Part shown: piece after piece, positions 1 to 7,212 of the stretch
Position numbering within the stretch: the stretch's first letter is position 1
Layout of the letters: each line of letters begins with the position of its first letter
IMG/VR virus record: IMGVR_UViG_2671180673_000008
Origin: a virus
Lineage: Duplodnaviria; Heunggongvirae; Uroviricota; Caudoviricetes
Reading direction: 5' to 3' (one strand)
DNA: 12,303 nucleotides
The notes under the pieces: model-generated
The model's input: the letters and a program-made list of their open reading frames with translations, nothing else
Told to the model about the DNA's origin: nothing
The model's database searches: none
Program-made: the position numbers and the translations under genes

Positions 1-483
1 TTGCGCAAATCGGTCCAGCCGTTCAGCGTCTCTGCTGTCGGTTAGCTCAAAATCAGTGAACTGACAGGTATGAGGATCATATCCCATATGTAGTCGCCAT
101 TCAGCGCTGCCGCCCCCGGGCGCACTGATTGCTGTTCCATCGACAAGACGCAATCTCTTTCCGCTTGTACAACCCGTAACTGCGGCGCGTACAGCAAGTG
201 TTTGTGCGGCAAGTATGCCAAACCAGTCGGCGGCATTCCGCAGCCGCTTCAGGAGAGCCAAGTCAGATAATGTTGCAACGTCATGGAGCTGAGCCCATGC
301 AGTGACTTCACGTAATGACATCCCCCCGGGGCCGTAAGCCAGCCCCAGACGTAGCAGAGTTGCAGCATCACGAATTTCGCGGCGGCGGGTTAGAGCCCCG
401 GCATTACGTGCCGAAGTATCCAGTTCTTCGGGCTTACCAATATGGGCCAGAATTGCTGACCAGTTATCGTGAGAGTAATTCAT
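1..483 (-). CDS. insL: IS186 transposase (InsL-like), N-terminal 161 codons; 3' part outside window
   Basis: Hand translation from ATG at 483..481: MNYSHDNWSAILAHIGKPEELDTSARNAGALTRRREIRDAATLLRLGLAYGPGGMSLREVT..., open to position 1. Absent from the ORF track because it runs off the edge. Confidence 0.75.
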   Translation of the reverse strand, partial: MNYSHDNWSAILAHIGKPEELDTSARNAGALTRRREIRDAATLLRLGLAYGPGGMSLREVTAWAQLHDVATLSDLALLKRLRNAADWFGILAAQTLAVRAAVTGCTSGKRLRLVDGTAISAPGGGSAEWRLHMGYDPHTCQFTDFELTDSRDAERLDRFAQ

Positions 484-538
484 CGGCACGTTAAATCATA
501 TCAGGCGTAATACCACAACCCTTAAGTTAGCGCTTATG
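1..538 (-). mobile_element. IS186-like (IS4 family) insertion sequence, partial; continues beyond the left window edge
   Basis: Minus-strand reading of 484..538 gives CATAAGCGCTAACTTAAGGGTTGTGG..., which I recognise as the IS186 terminal inverted repeat, followed by the transposase start at 483. Element boundary placed at 538/539. From memory, not searched. Confidence 0.75.
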
Positions 539-574
539 GGATTTGCTCCCCGCCTTTTTTATGGATGAAATAGG

Positions 575-1072
575 ATGAACCCAATAACACTACAAATCAT
601 CAGCAATGCTATTGTTCTGCTTGGCGTTTTGGTTGCCATTGGAACCATTATCTACAATGTGCGTACCGCAAAAAAAACTCAAACGGCCAACTTTCTTTTT
701 GAGAGTCGGCAAGATATGCAATATATAGAGTCATTGCATACCCTGAAACAAGTGCATCGTTCAGGCAAATCATTTCGTTCTTATGTTTTTCCTTGTGATG
801 GTTGCATAATAACAGATGAAGAAATGGCCGAGCGTCGAAAATTTCAATATATTTTAAATTTTTACGAGCGAGTTGCTGTAAGTATTCGTGAAGGTATTTA
901 TGATGAAAAAATGATAAAAAGAACATCTTACACAACAGTTGTAGAGACATATGATATTGCCGAGCCATTAATTAAAGCAATCAGAGAAAGCATTAATTCG
1001 GATACTACATATCAAGAATTCGAATGGTTAGTAAGAAGATGGAAAGCTAATCCTTTACGGAAAAACAAATAA
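575..1072 (+). CDS. hypothetical protein, 165 aa, one N-terminal transmembrane helix plus a ~130-aa soluble domain; first gene of AT-rich cargo cassette
   Basis: ATG at 575, weak SD (GGA ~9 nt upstream). N-terminal hydrophobic stretch ITLQIISNAIVLLGVLVAIGTIIY. Markedly AT-rich compared with the gpA region. No family recognised. Confidence 0.6.
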   Translation: MNPITLQIISNAIVLLGVLVAIGTIIYNVRTAKKTQTANFLFESRQDMQYIESLHTLKQVHRSGKSFRSYVFPCDGCIITDEEMAERRKFQYILNFYERVAVSIREGIYDEKMIKRTSYTTVVETYDIAEPLIKAIRESINSDTTYQEFEWLVRRWKANPLRKNK

Positions 1073-1111
1073 TGTTTTACCCTTTAATTTACAAGTAACA
1101 CAGGGGGAAGT

Positions 1112-1954
1112 GTGACACAGAATCCGTTTTCATTTTATGACTTTTTGGGCTATCTAATTCCAGGTGGGTTATTCCTGTTTATCCTTTTTTTGTTTTCTAT
1201 TGAAATTAACCCTGTTTATATAGAAGGTATTCTTAACCATATCCTGAAATATAAAGAAATAATAAGTGTATTTATATATGTGGTATTAATCGTTCTATCA
1301 TATATTTCAGGTCACTTCATATCTATTCTATCATCCTGTTTAATTGAAAAATACATGAACAGTAAACTTGGGTATCCTTCAATTTATCTGTTTTCTAAAA
1401 GAAGCTCCCTGAAAATAAAACGACATAATACTAAGTTCAGTATAGTTAATTTTATTCGTGGAGTTTTTTTATTTCCTGTATCAGCTTTTGATAAAGCAGA
1501 ACATCATAAAACCACACTGCATTCTATACTTATTAAAGTCTTTTGGCCGCAAATACGAGATGGTTATATAAATGTTTTTTCTGTATCTACGCTATATCGA
1601 CGTAAGGGCTTGAGGGGCGATCTTTTTCGCCTTGCTTATCATTATGTGTATGAACATTCTAAAAATCATCAGGTGAAAATGCAAAACTATGTTGCTTTGT
1701 ATGGTTTTTGTAGAAACATTACATTTGTTTTTCTCGCTTCAGTCTGGTTGCTTATGTTCCTGCTCCTTCTATCCTTTTTAATAGATATAAATATCAGACT
1801 GTTACCTTTTTGTTTTCTTCTCTTGTTTTGTATTGCTGCATCCCGAGTATTTTATTATGGTTTTGTTAAGTATTATCGCCGCTATTCTCTTGAGGTTTTA
1901 ATGGCATTTGCGGTACTTCAGCACGATAAAAAAACTTCGGCAATTTCATCATGA
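1112..1954 (+). CDS. hypothetical polytopic membrane protein, 280 aa, about 4-5 predicted TM helices; second gene of cargo cassette
   Basis: GTG start at 1112 preceded by GGGGG 5 nt upstream. Several long hydrophobic segments (e.g. LGYLIPGGLFLFILFLFSI, ITFVFLASVWLLMFLLLLSFLI). Very AT-rich. 40-nt gap from upstream gene suggests an operon. Confidence 0.55.
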   Translation: MTQNPFSFYDFLGYLIPGGLFLFILFLFSIEINPVYIEGILNHILKYKEIISVFIYVVLIVLSYISGHFISILSSCLIEKYMNSKLGYPSIYLFSKRSSLKIKRHNTKFSIVNFIRGVFLFPVSAFDKAEHHKTTLHSILIKVFWPQIRDGYINVFSVSTLYRRKGLRGDLFRLAYHYVYEHSKNHQVKMQNYVALYGFCRNITFVFLASVWLLMFLLLLSFLIDINIRLLPFCFLLLFCIAASRVFYYGFVKYYRRYSLEVLMAFAVLQHDKKTSAISS

Positions 1955-1965
1955 TTTGAAACATT

Positions 1966-1988
1966 GGCACCCTGTTAGCAAGGGTGCC
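1966..1988. terminator. perfect 8-bp stem / 7-nt loop hairpin between convergent transcription units; putative bidirectional terminator
   Basis: GGCACCCT gttagca AGGGTGCC, arms exact reverse complements. Sits in the 83-bp gap between the stop of the 280-aa gene (1954) and the stop of parR (2038). No strong U-tract on either side. Confidence 0.5.
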
Positions 1989-2037
1989 AGAATGATGTGT
2001 TGGTCTGTATTTTATTAGTTCACATACAATTATCAGA

Positions 2038-2352
2038 TTATTCTGGGAATAAGGTCTGAATATTCTTTTTTATTTTATAAAAATTGCATTCAACTCCGCT
2101 AGGCTGATTATCCTGGTATGTTTCCTTGATGCTAACGGTATTGAAGGGGAGGTTGTCCTCTGGCCATTCGGCCATCCAGTAGGCAAATGCTGGGTTGCGC
2201 TTTATGAGCGCTAGCCCAGCCAGAAAGGCCGCGCGTTGCGCGCGGCTGCGTTCGGAGGCTGGCAGGCTATCGAGGTAATTGCACGCCTCCTGTTCACTCT
2301 TGACGGCGGCGGGCTTCAGATAGAAACTTATCCGTCTGGTTGGTGTCGTCAT
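2038..2352 (-). CDS. parR: ParR-like centromere-binding adaptor (plasmid R1 ParR/StbB family), 104 aa
   Basis: From internal ATG at 2352: MTTPTRRISFYLKPAAV...LDSLPASERSRAQRAAFLAGLALI resembles R1 ParR (...TIAFKLNPDV...LDSIPQGERSRLNRAALTAGLALY) as I remember it. AAGGAG 8 nt upstream. Starts 4 nt after parM stop. The 149-aa track ORF (2038..2487) overlaps parM and is taken as an over-extension. Confidence 0.7.
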   Translation of the reverse strand: MTTPTRRISFYLKPAAVKSEQEACNYLDSLPASERSRAQRAAFLAGLALIKRNPAFAYWMAEWPEDNLPFNTVSIKETYQDNQPSGVECNFYKIKKNIQTLFPE

Positions 2353-2356
2353 TGGT

Positions 2357-3316
2357 TTACTCCTTGTCCATTGCGTACAGCCCATTAACCAGAGCAAACT
2401 GTGGCACCCCGTCCGCGATGAAAGTCGCATTAACTCCGCAGACTTCGCGGATAGCGGGTGCCACAATCTCCGCCCCTCCACCGACAACCATCACCCGCCC
2501 GTAACCCGAAAAAACCGCCAGCGCGCGGATCACGCGTTGTTTCAGTGTTTCTTCCTTTTCACGAATAACCGCCATCAGGCTGGCGTAATGCGCGTCATTG
2601 TGGATGTGCTGGCGCAGCCAGGCTTCATCATGGCGATGTTCGATAATGGTATTGGCGATGTGGTGACTGGTGCGCATACCGTTAGTGGCCATCACCGACA
2701 GTACGGCATCGGCCATCAGGGAAACGCCTACGTGTGGATCGCAAAACACCTGGCTGATACCTGCCAGTTGCCCTTGAACCTTTGCCACATCCAGCGTGGT
2801 TCCGCCTAAATCCACAATCAGCAGGGATTCAAACGGACTCATGTCAGCCAGTGCTTTAAAGCCAGCCGGAATGGATTCAGGCATAACCCGCACGTTACGG
2901 ATAGTGAATGCTTCGCCGTTCTGGTATTCCACCGGGCGCATAACGTTCGCTTTTTTGCGGTTGATGTTGGCCATGTCCGGCTGTGCGTTTGTGTCGAAAT
3001 ACTCGCTCAGTGGCAGGGTGACAACCACATCCACCTCCTGTGGCGTGATGCCTGATTTGACCAGCGCGTGATGAATGGCGATTACATTCACATCGCTGTA
3101 CTGGTATTGCGTGTCGGTCGTCTGGACAAAGCGATCGCTAACCGGATCAAAACCATAGCGCACGCCATCAAGCATGTAGTTCGCGGGCTGCATGCCACCG
3201 AACGGCGCAGACCATTCCGACTTGAAGCTGTTCGGGCTGATGGCGTTGCGGCGTTCGCCATTCTCAGTCCATGCCAGCTTGATGTTGGTGGAGCCGTCGT
3301 CGATACAAATTTTCAT
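2357..3316 (-). CDS. parM: ParM/StbA-like actin-fold partition ATPase, 319 aa
   Basis: N-terminus MKICIDDGSTNIKLAW...ISPNSFKSEW...YSDVNVIAIHHAL closely matches R1 ParM (MLVFIDDGSTNIKLQW...ISPNSFKREW...YSDVNVVAVHHAL) from memory. AAGGA RBS about 9 nt upstream of ATG at 3316. Confidence 0.8.
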   Translation of the reverse strand: MKICIDDGSTNIKLAWTENGERRNAISPNSFKSEWSAPFGGMQPANYMLDGVRYGFDPVSDRFVQTTDTQYQYSDVNVIAIHHALVKSGITPQEVDVVVTLPLSEYFDTNAQPDMANINRKKANVMRPVEYQNGEAFTIRNVRVMPESIPAGFKALADMSPFESLLIVDLGGTTLDVAKVQGQLAGISQVFCDPHVGVSLMADAVLSVMATNGMRTSHHIANTIIEHRHDEAWLRQHIHNDAHYASLMAVIREKEETLKQRVIRALAVFSGYGRVMVVGGGAEIVAPAIREVCGVNATFIADGVPQFALVNGLYAMDKE

Positions 3317-3392: not shown

Positions 3393-6215
3393 TCATATAT
3401 CGCTGCGCGTTTTTTGCTCATTTACGGGATTCGTAAGTCCCGTTTCTGTCTGTTTTTTGTTTCCACTGGTCAGGCCACCCCGCAGCAGGTCTGCTTTGCG
3501 GCTGGCGCGTTCAGTGGTTTCACTGATTCTCTGTGCGTGCTCTGCGTCGCGGATGGCGCGCAGCATGTCAGAAAGCACGGTAACGGGTGTTTTCATGGTG
3601 TTCTGGCCCTGCTGAAGTGTGGATGCCAGGCGTGCGGCGGCTTCAGGGTCTGATGCCCCCAGCTGTGCCAGATAGCTGGCGACCGGGTTATGGCGGATCT
3701 CCGTGCTGCTTACGCCATGATTACGGCTCAGGCGCTGCCAGAGCTGCGTGATTCGGCTGTCCGGGCGGGTATCCGGTTTGCGTACAATTTCAAATCCCTG
3801 CGGTGCAATGATGCTGCCGTCAACGTACAGACTGCCGCCCCGTAACAGGTGCTGCATCTGTTGTTCACCGATATGCAGGCCGAGAGATTCAGCAGACTCC
3901 CGCCATTCTTTAGCGAGTAATTCGTGGTTATCAGGCAAAGGCCGCTGCTGTTTGCGGCTCTGTGTCCAGCTCTGCATTTCATCGCTGCTGTTTTTTGCCT
4001 GTTTGTCACGAAGCGAACGCATCAGCGCCCGGCGTTCGTGTCGTTTCAGTGAGCGCATCCATTCGTTCACTTCAACGCCGTCAGGGAGCTGCGGCCACGG
4101 TGCTGGCCGTTCTTCCGGCTGTTCTGTCCCGTTGTTGTCCGTTTCCTGTACACGGGGACAGTTATTGCCACGAGTCCAAGGGGCGGCAGGGCCGCCCTGA
4201 AGGTCAAAACCATTTTCGCGGGCGCTGTCTTCCGCTTCCGGTTTACGTCTTACCAGCTTCCAGTTATCCGGATGCGTGCACACACGGGAGGATTCCCCGA
4301 TGAGTGGTGACCAGATCCCGTAAATCTGTACGCTCTGTTCGCCGTAATCGTTCAGCTCATCTGCGAGGTCGTAGGCGGTGCGAATCAGGTAGTCCTTGCG
4401 TGGAACAAGCACGCCACCCTGTTTTTCAATGTAGGTGGCAAAACACCCGGCATCGGCGGCAGCGAGTACCGCATCCATTGCATCATCTTTCAGCCGTTGC
4501 GGGCCTTCCGGATTGCGTGCCATCTGGCTGGCAAGGCGGCGCAGTTCACGCCACACCTGACGGGAGGGGATGCCAAAGAACTGGAACTGACGGACCCGGT
4601 GAAGGCGCGCCCAGCCGATGGCGCGCTCCACGCTCTCGGCCATTGATTTTCCGGTTTCGTGGTCCACGCGTGGCTTGCCCGTTTTCGGGTCGATGCCATC
4701 CACGGCGCGGCTGTCCAGGTTCTTTCCGATGTAGGTGGCGATGTAGCTGGTTGGCGTGCCTTTTGAGCCGTCGACATACTCCACCTTAAAGCGCGGAGTA
4801 ATATCATTGCCCAGCTCGTGGCGGTCTTCCTGAATGGCAATATCGCGGGTATGGGACACAATGGTGTCGATTTCTTCCGGATGTGCAAAGACCATCATAT
4901 GCCAGTGCACGGTGCCGTCATGATGAGGCTCCACCGTGCGGATGCCATACCAGCGCAGGCCGTCGCGGTTCAGTTTTTTGCGGACCGCCGCAAAAAACGT
5001 GTTAACCAGGTAATCGCTGGAGTCGCGCATTGTGGCCCCGTTCCATTTGGGATTCGGATGACCGTTCTCCGTTGTGGCGTGGTATTTTGACGGGCAGGTG
5101 ACAGTCAGAAACACCGCTTTGTCGCCACGGGCTTCGGCCAGAAGTTCCAGTCCCTTCATGGTGGCCATCATTTCTGCCTTACGGTGAACCGGGTTACTTA
5201 CTCCCGCGTAATACACTGTCTCGAGATCAATCGTGAACCCGTCTTCATTTTCCAGCATGAAACTTTTCAGGAAATCGCGTGTTTTCTCGCGCTGTGCGCG
5301 AAACTCGCTTAACGCGTCCTGGCTCAGATAGGGTGATGTTTTTCTGGAAACCAGACAGGCGGCGCGGAGTTGTTCTTCTCTCCACTCGCAACGTAACAGC
5401 CACAGTTTGCGTTTCCACCATTCCGCACAGGTCAGGCGAAGGATTGCGCCCGGCAGCAGCTCCGTGTCCGGTTCGTTCCTCCGGTCTTTGTCTGTTGTCA
5501 GTGCGTCATAATGTGGAGGCATGGCGTGCAGGTGTAACGCCATGCGGGCCAGCATCTGATACGCCTTCAGGGTTACATCCATGGTCAGCTCGCCATCGGT
5601 CGCGCCAAAGCCATCGCAGAGTTTTTCGAAGGTGCTGCTGAACATCGCCGCCGTCATGGTGGCCAGCGTCTGTATCTGGTGTTTGTTGAGCTGCGGCAGG
5701 TAAAGCAAATCGTCCAGGCGTTCGCGTCCGGCAAGGGAGCGATAACCCGGTGTCAGCCAGCGTCCGTCAGTGCTATCCAGACGTTCGAATATTTTGCGCA
5801 GGGTTCCGCGTGCATAGCGTTCCGCCTGCCAGCTCTTTTTGCCTTTCCGGCGATCGGCTTCCTGTTTTTTGCGCAGGAAGGAGAGGTGGCGAATAAGCGG
5901 ATCGCGCAGATAGGACGGCAGCAGGCGCAGCGAGGCCATGGCTTCATCCACCGCGCCACGTGCCTGTTTTCTGGCGTCTCCTGCCAGTGTGATGGTTTTG
6001 TCCTGTTTTTCCTGTGCGTCCAGGCTTTTATTAATCAGGTTGCCCAGCGGCGTGGCTGAGAACGCCGCATCAGCCATTTCCTGGCGGCGCTCGTTCTCTG
6101 CCCGGTAGGCATCCAGCCAGGAGGAAAGCGCGGATTCAGGAGCGGGGATCCCCGTTCCTTCACGCCCCACTGCGTGGCGCGGTTGTTGCCAGTCCCTGAG
6201 GTACTCTGCCGTCAT
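3393..6215 (-). CDS. rolling-circle replication initiation endonuclease, phage P2 gpA family, 940 aa
   Basis: Conserved blocks recalled from P2 A: LTVTCPSKYH, TVEPHHDGTVHWHMMVF (HUH metal-binding motif) and TSYIATYIGKN (paired catalytic tyrosines). ATG at 6215 lies 6 nt after the stop of the upstream ORF. Confidence 0.85.
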   Translation of the reverse strand: MTAEYLRDWQQPRHAVGREGTGIPAPESALSSWLDAYRAENERRQEMADAAFSATPLGNLINKSLDAQEKQDKTITLAGDARKQARGAVDEAMASLRLLPSYLRDPLIRHLSFLRKKQEADRRKGKKSWQAERYARGTLRKIFERLDSTDGRWLTPGYRSLAGRERLDDLLYLPQLNKHQIQTLATMTAAMFSSTFEKLCDGFGATDGELTMDVTLKAYQMLARMALHLHAMPPHYDALTTDKDRRNEPDTELLPGAILRLTCAEWWKRKLWLLRCEWREEQLRAACLVSRKTSPYLSQDALSEFRAQREKTRDFLKSFMLENEDGFTIDLETVYYAGVSNPVHRKAEMMATMKGLELLAEARGDKAVFLTVTCPSKYHATTENGHPNPKWNGATMRDSSDYLVNTFFAAVRKKLNRDGLRWYGIRTVEPHHDGTVHWHMMVFAHPEEIDTIVSHTRDIAIQEDRHELGNDITPRFKVEYVDGSKGTPTSYIATYIGKNLDSRAVDGIDPKTGKPRVDHETGKSMAESVERAIGWARLHRVRQFQFFGIPSRQVWRELRRLASQMARNPEGPQRLKDDAMDAVLAAADAGCFATYIEKQGGVLVPRKDYLIRTAYDLADELNDYGEQSVQIYGIWSPLIGESSRVCTHPDNWKLVRRKPEAEDSARENGFDLQGGPAAPWTRGNNCPRVQETDNNGTEQPEERPAPWPQLPDGVEVNEWMRSLKRHERRALMRSLRDKQAKNSSDEMQSWTQSRKQQRPLPDNHELLAKEWRESAESLGLHIGEQQMQHLLRGGSLYVDGSIIAPQGFEIVRKPDTRPDSRITQLWQRLSRNHGVSSTEIRHNPVASYLAQLGASDPEAAARLASTLQQGQNTMKTPVTVLSDMLRAIRDAEHAQRISETTERASRKADLLRGGLTSGNKKQTETGLTNPVNEQKTRSDI
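3418..3460. repeat. hairpin-repeat copy 2, inside the last ~22 codons of gpA
   Basis: TTTACGGGATTCGTAAGTCCCGTTTCTGTCTGTTTTTTGT. Imperfect direct repeat of copy 1, about 73 bp away, with inverted repeat ACGGGA/TCCCGT and a T-tract. Confidence 0.6.
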
Positions 6216-6890: not shown

Positions 6891-7069
6891 GGTGTGGCCC
6901 CTTGTGTAGTAAGTTGTGAAAACTCACCATCCAGAGCTGCGAAACTGTGGGTGGCGAGACGTACGAGGTTCGCAGTACCGGCTACACAAGAACCCGGCCC
7001 GACCGAAGTCGGCCCCGTACGCCCCGCCATAATTCTGACGCGAAAAAAACGTGGCAATACAGTACGCAC

Positions 7070-7090
7070 AAAAAAACCGCTGGCGCGGTT
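7070..7090 (-). terminator. intrinsic terminator on the - strand inside the early gene string
   Basis: Minus-strand reading AACCGC gcca GCGGTT followed by TTTTTTT (+ strand AAAAAAACCGCTGGCGCGGTT). 6-bp GC-rich stem, 4-nt loop, 7-U tract. Confidence 0.6.
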
Positions 7091-7212
7091 GTGCGCTTGT
7101 GTAGTCAGCAGGCTGCGAAACCCGGCACCCGTTTTATGAGGTGCAGCGGAAATGTAACCTGACTGATTGCGGCATGGCAAGCGGTTTTTTTGTGTGTGCA
7201 TGCTCTGGTTTC

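Follow-up and report, generated by a model that had tools for sequence, protein, structure and literature searches.

We analysed a window of 12,303 nucleotides (nt) of viral DNA (Caudoviricetes; IMG/VR record IMGVR_UViG_2671180673_000008) and, in it, two adjacent genes, here termed A and B, together with the leader that precedes A. The window covers the left portion of a P2-family prophage and is 100% identical to the prophage beside dmsA in ST131-type Escherichia coli (e.g., JJ1887); the phage belongs to a P88-like lineage (Xuanwuvirus, P2-family) with E. coli as its host. An earlier reading of the sequence, referred to here as the original prediction, had described A and B as a two-gene membrane-protein cassette, suggested to be separately acquired, and had tentatively likened its layout to a membrane-anchored sensor with a membrane effector. 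The genes themselves were correctly described: two co-oriented open reading frames (ORFs) lie where they had been placed (Table 1), and RefSeq annotates the same two coding sequences. Hydropathy likewise agrees with one transmembrane (TM) helix plus a soluble domain for A, where an N-out anchor at residues 8-26 is followed by a cytoplasmic domain of 139 amino acids (aa), and with a polytopic B, where four TM helices (~12-30, 48-68, 206-224 and 230-250) enclose a basic, 137-aa cytoplasmic loop. Purifying selection on both A (dN/dS = 0.07) and B (dN/dS = 0.28) indicates that both are real genes. Neither protein had been recognised in the original prediction, and no functional family was found for them in PADLOC, NCBIfam, Pfam or PHROGs, where the matches were limited to DUF4760, PHROGs of unknown function and weak Csx27 hits.

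Read from right to left, the window holds int and a C-like repressor gene on the + strand, then cox, the early genes, gpA (940 aa), ParM and an StbB/ParR-like protein on the - strand. A and B lie on the + strand and converge with StbB/ParM/gpA, as had been noted. In JJ1887 the order is portal, hypothetical gene, A, B, stbB, parM and gpA, which places A and B in the P2 gpQ-gpA hotspot described by Rousset 2022 (PMC9122126). The cargo position given in the original prediction is therefore correct as to the site, but the genes do not follow gpA directly, since parM and parR (stbB) intervene. The claim that the cassette is far richer in AT than the phage genes was borne out, with a GC content of 27-38% over ~600-2000 compared with 53-60% in ParM/gpA and 55-57% in the left flank. 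Nine perfect base pairs form the hairpin that had been said to close the cassette, and the 91-nt stretch around it has a folding z of -2.7; on the + strand, no U-tract follows the hairpin on its 3’ side and a terminator scan made no call there. The cassette was carried by 289 of 5,426 complete E. coli genomes and was chromosomal in every case, so that the A and B gene set is a common P2-hotspot cargo (~5% of the complete E. coli genomes, including many from ST131). It appears ~160 times in Table S5 of Rousset 2022 and is absent from the tested systems of Table S2 (PMC9122126); the locus is thus already catalogued but uncharacterised.

Table 1. Features of the A/B locus and its surroundings (window coordinates), with micro-ORF endings from other phages
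Feature	Position	Strand	Evidence or details
Partial IS186/IS421 (IS4 family)	1..538	-	Sequence reading; RefSeq 'IS4-like element IS421 family transposase' in identical loci; junction compared with IS-free locus
Remnant of the module's intrinsic terminator	539..560	+	Target duplication GGATTTGCTCC 539-549; 3’ arm TCCCCGCC 547-554; T6 run 555-560
Second tiny ORF (MDEIG*)	561..578	+	Directly after T-run; its TGA overlaps the ATG of A (ATGA)
Gene A, DUF4760, 165 aa, ATG start	575..1072	+	Pfam PF15956 E = 1.8e-34; phrog_2284
A-B spacer, 39 nt	1073..1111	+	Holds Shine-Dalgarno sequence of B; same 39-nt spacing in L039
Gene B, 280 aa, GTG start	1112..1954	+	Shine-Dalgarno GGGGGA 4 nt upstream; phrog_12528
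Perfect 9-bp hairpin between convergent B and stbB	1965..1989	.	TGGCACCCT / GTTAGCA / AGGGTGCCA; also kept in L039
stbB/parR-like partition protein	2038..2352	-	Pfam Plasmid_stab_B E = 1.9e-28 and RefSeq annotation; neighbouring hotspot cargo, outside cassette
ParM actin-like segregation ATPase	2357..3316	-	Pfam StbA_N 2.7e-82; ParM_N (described as ParM C-terminal domain) 1.1e-68
gpA replication endonuclease	3393..6215	-	Pfam Phage_GPA 4.9e-131; right edge of hotspot
Micro-ORF ending, Pseudomonas phage			..EEYEGI
Micro-ORF ending, Acinetobacter phage			..NEGWDF
Micro-ORF ending, Alteromonas phage			..DGWDDI

Comparison of loci makes it very probable that A and B are independent modules stacked in one hotspot and that the leader architecture of A is real. 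None of 29 A loci from genomes and phages had a B homologue within 6 kb. Among IMG/VR loci, 36 of the 45 with A were without B, and 65 of the 72 with B were without A; a phage database gave the same picture of separate occurrence. The viral loci that hold both genes (9/45 for A, 7/72 for B) all belong to one E. coli P88-like lineage in which B is at least 96% identical. Even in the closest relative, Citrobacter phage phiSM, whose portal, ParM and gpA are 98-99% identical, A stands alone between the portal gene and parR. An A homologue with 88% identity occupies the same P2 hotspot alone in Xenorhabdus. A is likewise alone in the P2 hotspots of Kluyvera and Dryocola and in prophages of Providencia and Klebsiella, and in Pseudomonas phage D14E it stands by itself immediately behind cI. 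Conversely, B homologues of ~45% identity abound in E. coli, Salmonella, Enterobacter, Citrobacter and Klebsiella, where they stand alone in lambdoid prophages, directly upstream of xis/int or after yfdQ/yfdR-like genes, with no DUF4760 gene nearby. The two genes are thus not conserved together outside one E. coli phage lineage, which is the outcome that the original prediction had itself named as counting against a sensor-effector cassette.

The paired lineage gave a similar result. Between the window and the metagenomic locus L039, nucleotide identity is 99.0% for A (dS 0.039) and the flanks hardly differ, whereas B is only 89.2% identical (dS 0.276), and a third B allele is 97.5% identical to that of the window. 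Otherwise near-identical loci (window, L039, L054 and L055) thus hold three or more alleles of B (100%, 97.5% and 89% nucleotide identity), with amino-acid changes concentrated in the cytoplasmic loop (91-155) and in TM3-TM4 (211-241). The pattern of divergence indicates that B is swapped independently of A by recombination.

The conserved partner of A is an upstream micro-ORF and not B. In the locus free of the insertion sequence (IS) described below, the 100 nt before A hold, in order, a strong Shine-Dalgarno (SD) sequence, an 11-codon ORF (MKKMYDEFDGF) and a GC-rich hairpin with a T6 run. The native terminator, GAGGCGGGGA-TTTGC-TCCCCGCC-TTTTTT, starts 20 nt past the micro-ORF and ends 14 nt before the ATG of A; in JJ1887, where the terminator lies at coordinate ~975,480, the uninterrupted sequence is GAGGCGGGGATTTGCTCCCCGCCTTTTTT. 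A micro-ORF ending in [D/E/N][E/D/Q][F/Y/W/G][D/E/W][G/W/D][F/L/C/I/V]-stop was present in 60 of 63 distinct A upstream regions, compared with 3 of 12,600 shuffles. These ORFs are 9-12 codons long and typically end in D-E-[F/Y]-[D/E]-[G/W]-[F/L]. At each position of the motif, synonymous codons replace one another (GAA/GAG 31:29), which points to selection on the peptide sequence. Related micro-ORFs also precede DUF4760 genes only 26-37% identical to A in three phage hosts (endings in Table 1).

Between the micro-ORF and A, a perfect-stem hairpin with a T-run was found in 54 of the 60 loci, with a median start 18 nt past the stop codon. A short ORF led by an SD sequence and then an intrinsic terminator, both ahead of A, correspond to the layout of an attenuator. 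Covariation was observed both in the terminator stem and in a 5-bp hairpin that encloses the micro-ORF stop codon (92.5% of cells paired versus 39-57% in slid controls; compensatory changes in 7 of 12 pairs; 0 of 500 shuffles as high). In the stop-codon hairpin (L001 13970-13990; alignment A6 columns 51-64), covariation links the wobble positions of the Asp and Gly codons to bases just past the stop, and two pairs show a UA to CG change. Directly after the T-run, the motif ATGGATGAAA is kept in many Enterobacterales loci (alignment A6). This conservation, together with the overlap of the MDEIG* ORF with A, suggests translational coupling or a conserved RNA element. Rfam searches of the native leader returned sub-threshold chance matches only, and a literature search for the peptide motif DEFDGF gave nothing relevant. 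We also considered the terminator stem as a P2 cos site, since GAGGCGGGGA is shared with the cos sequence; this was rejected because no P2-type cos was found in the locus within 3 mismatches and because the same hairpin accompanies A outside P2 phages. Judged from sequence, the leader may act as a cis-acting nascent-peptide switch or may supply a peptide partner made in excess of A, and the two readings are not exclusive. The unit is not confined to prophages, as a chromosomal, non-prophage micro-ORF, terminator and DUF4760 gene were seen in Enterobacter sp. R4-368 (L010) and in Rahnella (L045 and L046); a GGDEF gene lies within ~1-2 kb of the unit in both genera, which may be coincidence.

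In this window the leader is interrupted. The left edge at 539, taken in the original prediction as the boundary of the module, is in fact the junction of a partial IS186/IS421 element that had been overlooked, whose transposase N-terminus reads leftward from 483 off the window and whose terminal inverted repeat lies at 516-538. The element was inserted within the leader terminator with an 11-bp target duplication, GGATTTGCTCC, and it now separates the promoter, the micro-ORF and the terminator 5’ arm from A and B by ~1.4 kb. A consensus scan found no outward promoter from the IS end toward A. As read from the sequence, A and the downstream gene B have lost their native control in this strain. 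The same insertion was present in only 4 of the 289 genomes, and in at least five others the IS occupies this nucleotide but is inverted. Both orientations at one nucleotide imply at least two independent insertions into the GC-rich palindrome; either this terminator is a hot spot for IS186 or disruption of the leader has been selected. Loci L166 and L167 (E. coli LS4 and ST131 isolate 46) have IS186/IS421 at the identical nucleotide, with orientation differing between strains, and one of the two orientations points the transposase gene toward A and B.

Gene A matched Pfam PF15956 with 119.3 bits (gathering cut-off 25), residues 12-156 aligning to profile positions 2-141 of 141, and the protein has many invariant Arg, Lys and Glu residues, among them R45, R68, R137, E98, E111, E148 and E150. 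DUF4760 has almost no presence in the searchable literature, its one appearance being in an unrelated paper, and searches with the A and B protein accessions gave nothing relevant. The best match of A in PADLOC-DB 2.0 was PDC-S35 (E = 0.014, not significant). Domain fusions were absent among 120 listed DUF4760 relatives, all of which are single-domain, and no TIR, SIR2 or cyclase gene adjoined A in any locus examined. The AlphaFold2 model of A is all-helical (pLDDT 92.5). A Foldseek search of the PDB with this model returned OsEDS1 first (probability 0.98, TMq 0.55) and other EDS1 chains with TMq 0.55-0.56, while matches outside EDS1 had TMq of 0.31 or less; by two programs, the plant EDS1/PAD4/SAG101 family provided the only standout structural neighbours. 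Because A is all-helical, we assign the match to the helical EP domain, which reportedly lacks structural homologues beyond the EDS1 family (PMC6377607). Presumably, therefore, the model of A shares a fold with the EP domain, a resemblance that is interesting but unproven as homology.

The B family comprises 1,097 cluster representatives and has no Pfam model, and a PDB sequence search with its profile gave chance matches only. The PADLOC profile for Csx27 matched 37 of 49 family members (best E = 1.3e-8) and NCBIfam CAS_Csx27 (NF040557) matched 9 of 49 (best 4.1e-6); other membrane-protein models matched only singletons. B itself matched the PADLOC profile weakly (E = 1.1e-5, profile positions 4-179 of 206), gave no NCBIfam match and reached no curated cut-off. 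These profile matches, consistent but weak, suggest that B is a distant member of a Csx27-like membrane-protein superfamily; as no cas13b is present, we do not call it a Csx27. Conserved motifs of the family lie at the cytoplasmic face (NPFSxYDFLGYxIPGG, GH, EKYMN, YPS, DLFRLAYHY, QNYVALYGFxRN and GFVKFYRR). The genes are AT-rich cargo with their own AT-rich upstream region. Distant members occupy cargo spots in the lambdoid replication/nin region (DnaB / DUF1367-YbcO), directly beside an AIPR (abortive infection) or PIN_8 gene (L107 3581-6879; L108 4235-7282), and one lies in a Mu-like prophage. A 288-aa homologue, P0134, occurs on >1,000 contigs; in E. coli it is found in a cryptic, degraded lambdoid prophage near zur/dinF/lexA (L002-L005 8001-8867), where its gene stands between a yfdR-like gene and a TorI-like excisionase gene, followed by a SocA_Panacea-domain gene.

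Other features of the phage were noted alongside these. The hotspot includes the parM/parR (stbB) partition pair (2038-3316). Compared with Citrobacter phiSM (L012), ParM is 99% identical but StbB only 52%, which places a variable-region recombination boundary through or beside stbB. A 174-aa hypothetical gene on the opposite strand (WP_000236495; L001 12789-13313, outside the window) lies between the portal gene and the leader of A and is additional uncharacterised hotspot cargo, a 46%-identical copy of which adjoins gpA in Trabulsiella (L037). Gathering-level Rfam matches to C4 antisense RNA (6947-7034, - strand, 83.2 bits) and to the Hfq-binding small RNA isrK (7070-7144, - strand, 65.2 bits) fall in an early-operon gap without annotated genes.

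We consider it probable, on balance, that the locus combines two prophage cargo modules, unrelated to each other and separately mobile, each with a single AT-rich gene, and with likely roles in phage competition at the inner membrane. A and B would have been stacked by chance in the gpQ-gpA hotspot of one P88-like lineage, where they are probably co-transcribed. The first module would have a fixed order of promoter, strongly SD-led micro-ORF, intrinsic terminator (in most loci) and DUF4760 gene. Its product would be tethered to the inner membrane by one N-terminal helix, with the predicted EDS1-like helical domain facing the cytoplasm. Micro-ORF and terminator would keep A low in the lysogen, and the leader would then either gate transcription of A, depending on what the ribosome does at the stop of the micro-ORF, or provide a peptide partner in larger amounts than A. 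The second module would be B, a putative 4-TM protein of the Csx27-like superfamily that elsewhere is a stand-alone cargo gene of lambdoid prophages. Each protein may act alone at the inner membrane against other phages, by superinfection exclusion or abortive infection. A role in defence or lysogenic conversion, as put forward in the original prediction, stays plausible for A and for B separately; an anti-phage role in particular is tentative, with chances that we put somewhat below even.

Several observations weigh against this picture. Neither A nor B matches a validated defence family in PADLOC. The similarity of A to EDS1 is at the level of fold only and the Foldseek E-value of 0.28 is not significant; A has no match to Pfam PF18117 at E <=1, and a PDB profile search with the A family returned chance matches only, with no EDS1-family chain at E <=10. 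In the leader, no convincing antiterminator was seen, only the 5-bp stop-codon hairpin and a weak CCUC/GAGG pairing, and six distant loci have the micro-ORF without a clear terminator; the attenuation step is thus unproven and may not be general. Copies of A as stable chromosomal genes in Rahnella and Enterobacter fit a housekeeping-like or addiction role as well as defence. Lastly, the 39-nt gap between A and B, without a terminator, persists across three B alleles, which may point to a functional coupling specific to this lineage.

The first alternative is that the micro-ORF and the DUF4760 gene form an addiction or abortive module resembling a toxin-antitoxin (TA) system, in which an abundant, labile, acidic peptide inactivates the membrane protein A, the terminator sets the excess of peptide, and A is released to harm the membrane once expression stops, either because a phage shuts it off or because the element is lost. 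The fixed gene order, the selection on peptide sequence and the terminator between the two ORFs would all fit such a module, as would the independent movement of the unit into prophages and chromosomes and its position next to parMR plasmid-maintenance genes in this phage. The many invariant Arg/Lys/Glu residues of A would also suit binding of an acidic C-terminal peptide. However, the peptide could act solely in cis as a nascent chain, and no known TA family was matched in Pfam, NCBIfam or PADLOC. Strains tolerate insertions that separate the peptide ORF from A, although these also remove the promoter of A and so are not decisive. We regard this alternative as unlikely, but worth keeping in view.

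A second alternative is that A and/or B serve lysogenic conversion or host physiology outside phage competition, such as envelope or stress functions of the ST131 host. The P2 hotspot also carries non-defence cargo, including partition systems and cytolethal distending toxin (Rousset 2022, PMC9122126), and a defensive role is predicted by machine learning for only 15-32% of P2 unknowns, although six of 8 unknown P4 loci that were tested protected (PMC13586616). The stable chromosomal copies of A fit this explanation too. On the other hand, both families lie overwhelmingly in prophage cargo sites across genera, B-family genes adjoin AIPR and PIN_8 genes, and B alleles turn over rapidly. Such a role is quite unlikely in our estimation.

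Two further proposals start from the predicted fold of A. One is that DUF4760 is a membrane-tethered prokaryotic and phage counterpart of the plant EP domain, a ligand-binding receptor controlling an abortive or exclusion response at the membrane, whose ligand is the acidic micropeptide (..DEFDGF-COOH) or an ADP-ribose-type nucleotide; we offer this as a speculative and rather improbable idea. If it were true, the micro-ORF and terminator would together make up a novel sort of peptide-based switch governing a prophage immunity gene, and the EP domain, so far deemed plant-specific, would become, like TIR, NLR, cGAS-STING and gasdermin, an immune component common to bacteria/phages and eukaryotes. 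The other is that A is an EP-related receptor or sponge for a TIR-type, ADP-ribose-derived nucleotide, which either triggers a membrane effect or, as a phage product, soaks up the immune signal of the host. The EDS1 family is the unique top structural neighbour of A, the EP domain is reported to stand alone in structure (PMC6377607), and TIR-plus-TM systems occur in the same P2 hotspot, in phage AC1 (PMC9122126). Against this, sequence searches (Pfam and PDB profiles) gave no link between A and EDS1, A has no TIR, SIR2 or cyclase neighbour in the examined loci, the 120 listed relatives are all single-domain, and all-helical domains can converge on similar folds; we therefore find a receptor or sponge of this kind improbable. 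Least credible is a single two-component abortive-infection system with A as membrane-anchored sensor and B as polytopic effector, for although both are membrane proteins, adjacent and co-oriented with 39 nt and no promoter-like or terminator-like site between them, in an arrangement maintained in 289 E. coli genomes and in the diverged copy L039, the pair is limited to one phage lineage, B is replaced by recombination independently of A, and the universally conserved neighbour of A is the micro-ORF.

As two separate modules, A and B can be compared with several known systems. Temperate phages encode stand-alone membrane exclusion proteins, including HK97 gp15, P22 SieA, T4 Imm and lambda RexB/SieB. 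Similarly, A and B are small inner-membrane proteins encoded by cargo genes of temperate phages, with an A homologue directly after cI in phage D14E and B homologues at the int/xis end of lambdoid prophages; A and B differ from these proteins in having no sequence or fold relationship to them. Leader-peptide attenuators and arrest peptides include TnaC, ErmCL, the cat/cmlA leaders and the ARE-ABCF leaders. The leader of A shares with these a short SD-led ORF directly upstream of the gene, conserved C-terminal residues, an intrinsic terminator between the short ORF and A and a conserved hairpin over the stop codon. It differs in that no alternative antiterminator helix was found, in that some loci are without the terminator, and in that the DEFDGF motif does not occur in the searched literature or Rfam; the regulated gene is a prophage membrane protein rather than a resistance or metabolic gene.

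Among cargo of the gpQ-gpA hotspot, old, tin, DUF4238, 3HP, DprA-PRTase and the AC1 system (TIR+2TM+1TM) have been validated (Rousset 2022, PMC9122126). A and B have the same locus type, small size and AT-rich, foreign composition, and the AC1 system likewise includes small TM proteins, but neither A nor B has a sequence match to any of these systems in PADLOC. Csx27, the accessory protein of type VI-B1 CRISPR-Cas13b systems, is reported to dampen Cas13b interference and has been proposed to be a nucleic-acid channel (as cited in PMC11662929). The B family matches two independent Csx27 profiles (PADLOC and NCBIfam) consistently but weakly, and Csx27 and B alike are small, polytopic inner-membrane proteins without a solved structure. 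B differs in its 280-aa length with a 137-aa basic cytoplasmic insert, and in its contexts, which are all prophage cargo sites with no cas13b or CRISPR array nearby. From the EP domain of plant EDS1/PAD4/SAG101 (PF18117), A differs in sequence (6-12% identity, no profile match) and in architecture, as it has no lipase-like domain and consists, in 165 aa, of a TM anchor plus a helical domain.

The label of a two-gene defence system does not stand. Since A and B are separate units, each should be studied alone, A with its native micro-ORF and terminator, rather than as a cassette taken from the IS junction. As far as our searches show, the DEFDGF micro-ORF and terminator switch, the EDS1-like DUF4760 fold suggested by the model and the Csx27-like prophage cargo proteins are undescribed. 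The arrangement of micro-ORF, terminator and DUF4760 gene spans Enterobacterales to Pseudomonas, Acinetobacter and Alteromonas phages, and for a domain that reportedly has no relatives beyond plants, the modelled fold of A may offer a lead that can be tested. With B, the Csx27 membrane family, itself poorly understood, would reach into prophage cargo sites, some of them beside abortive-infection genes.

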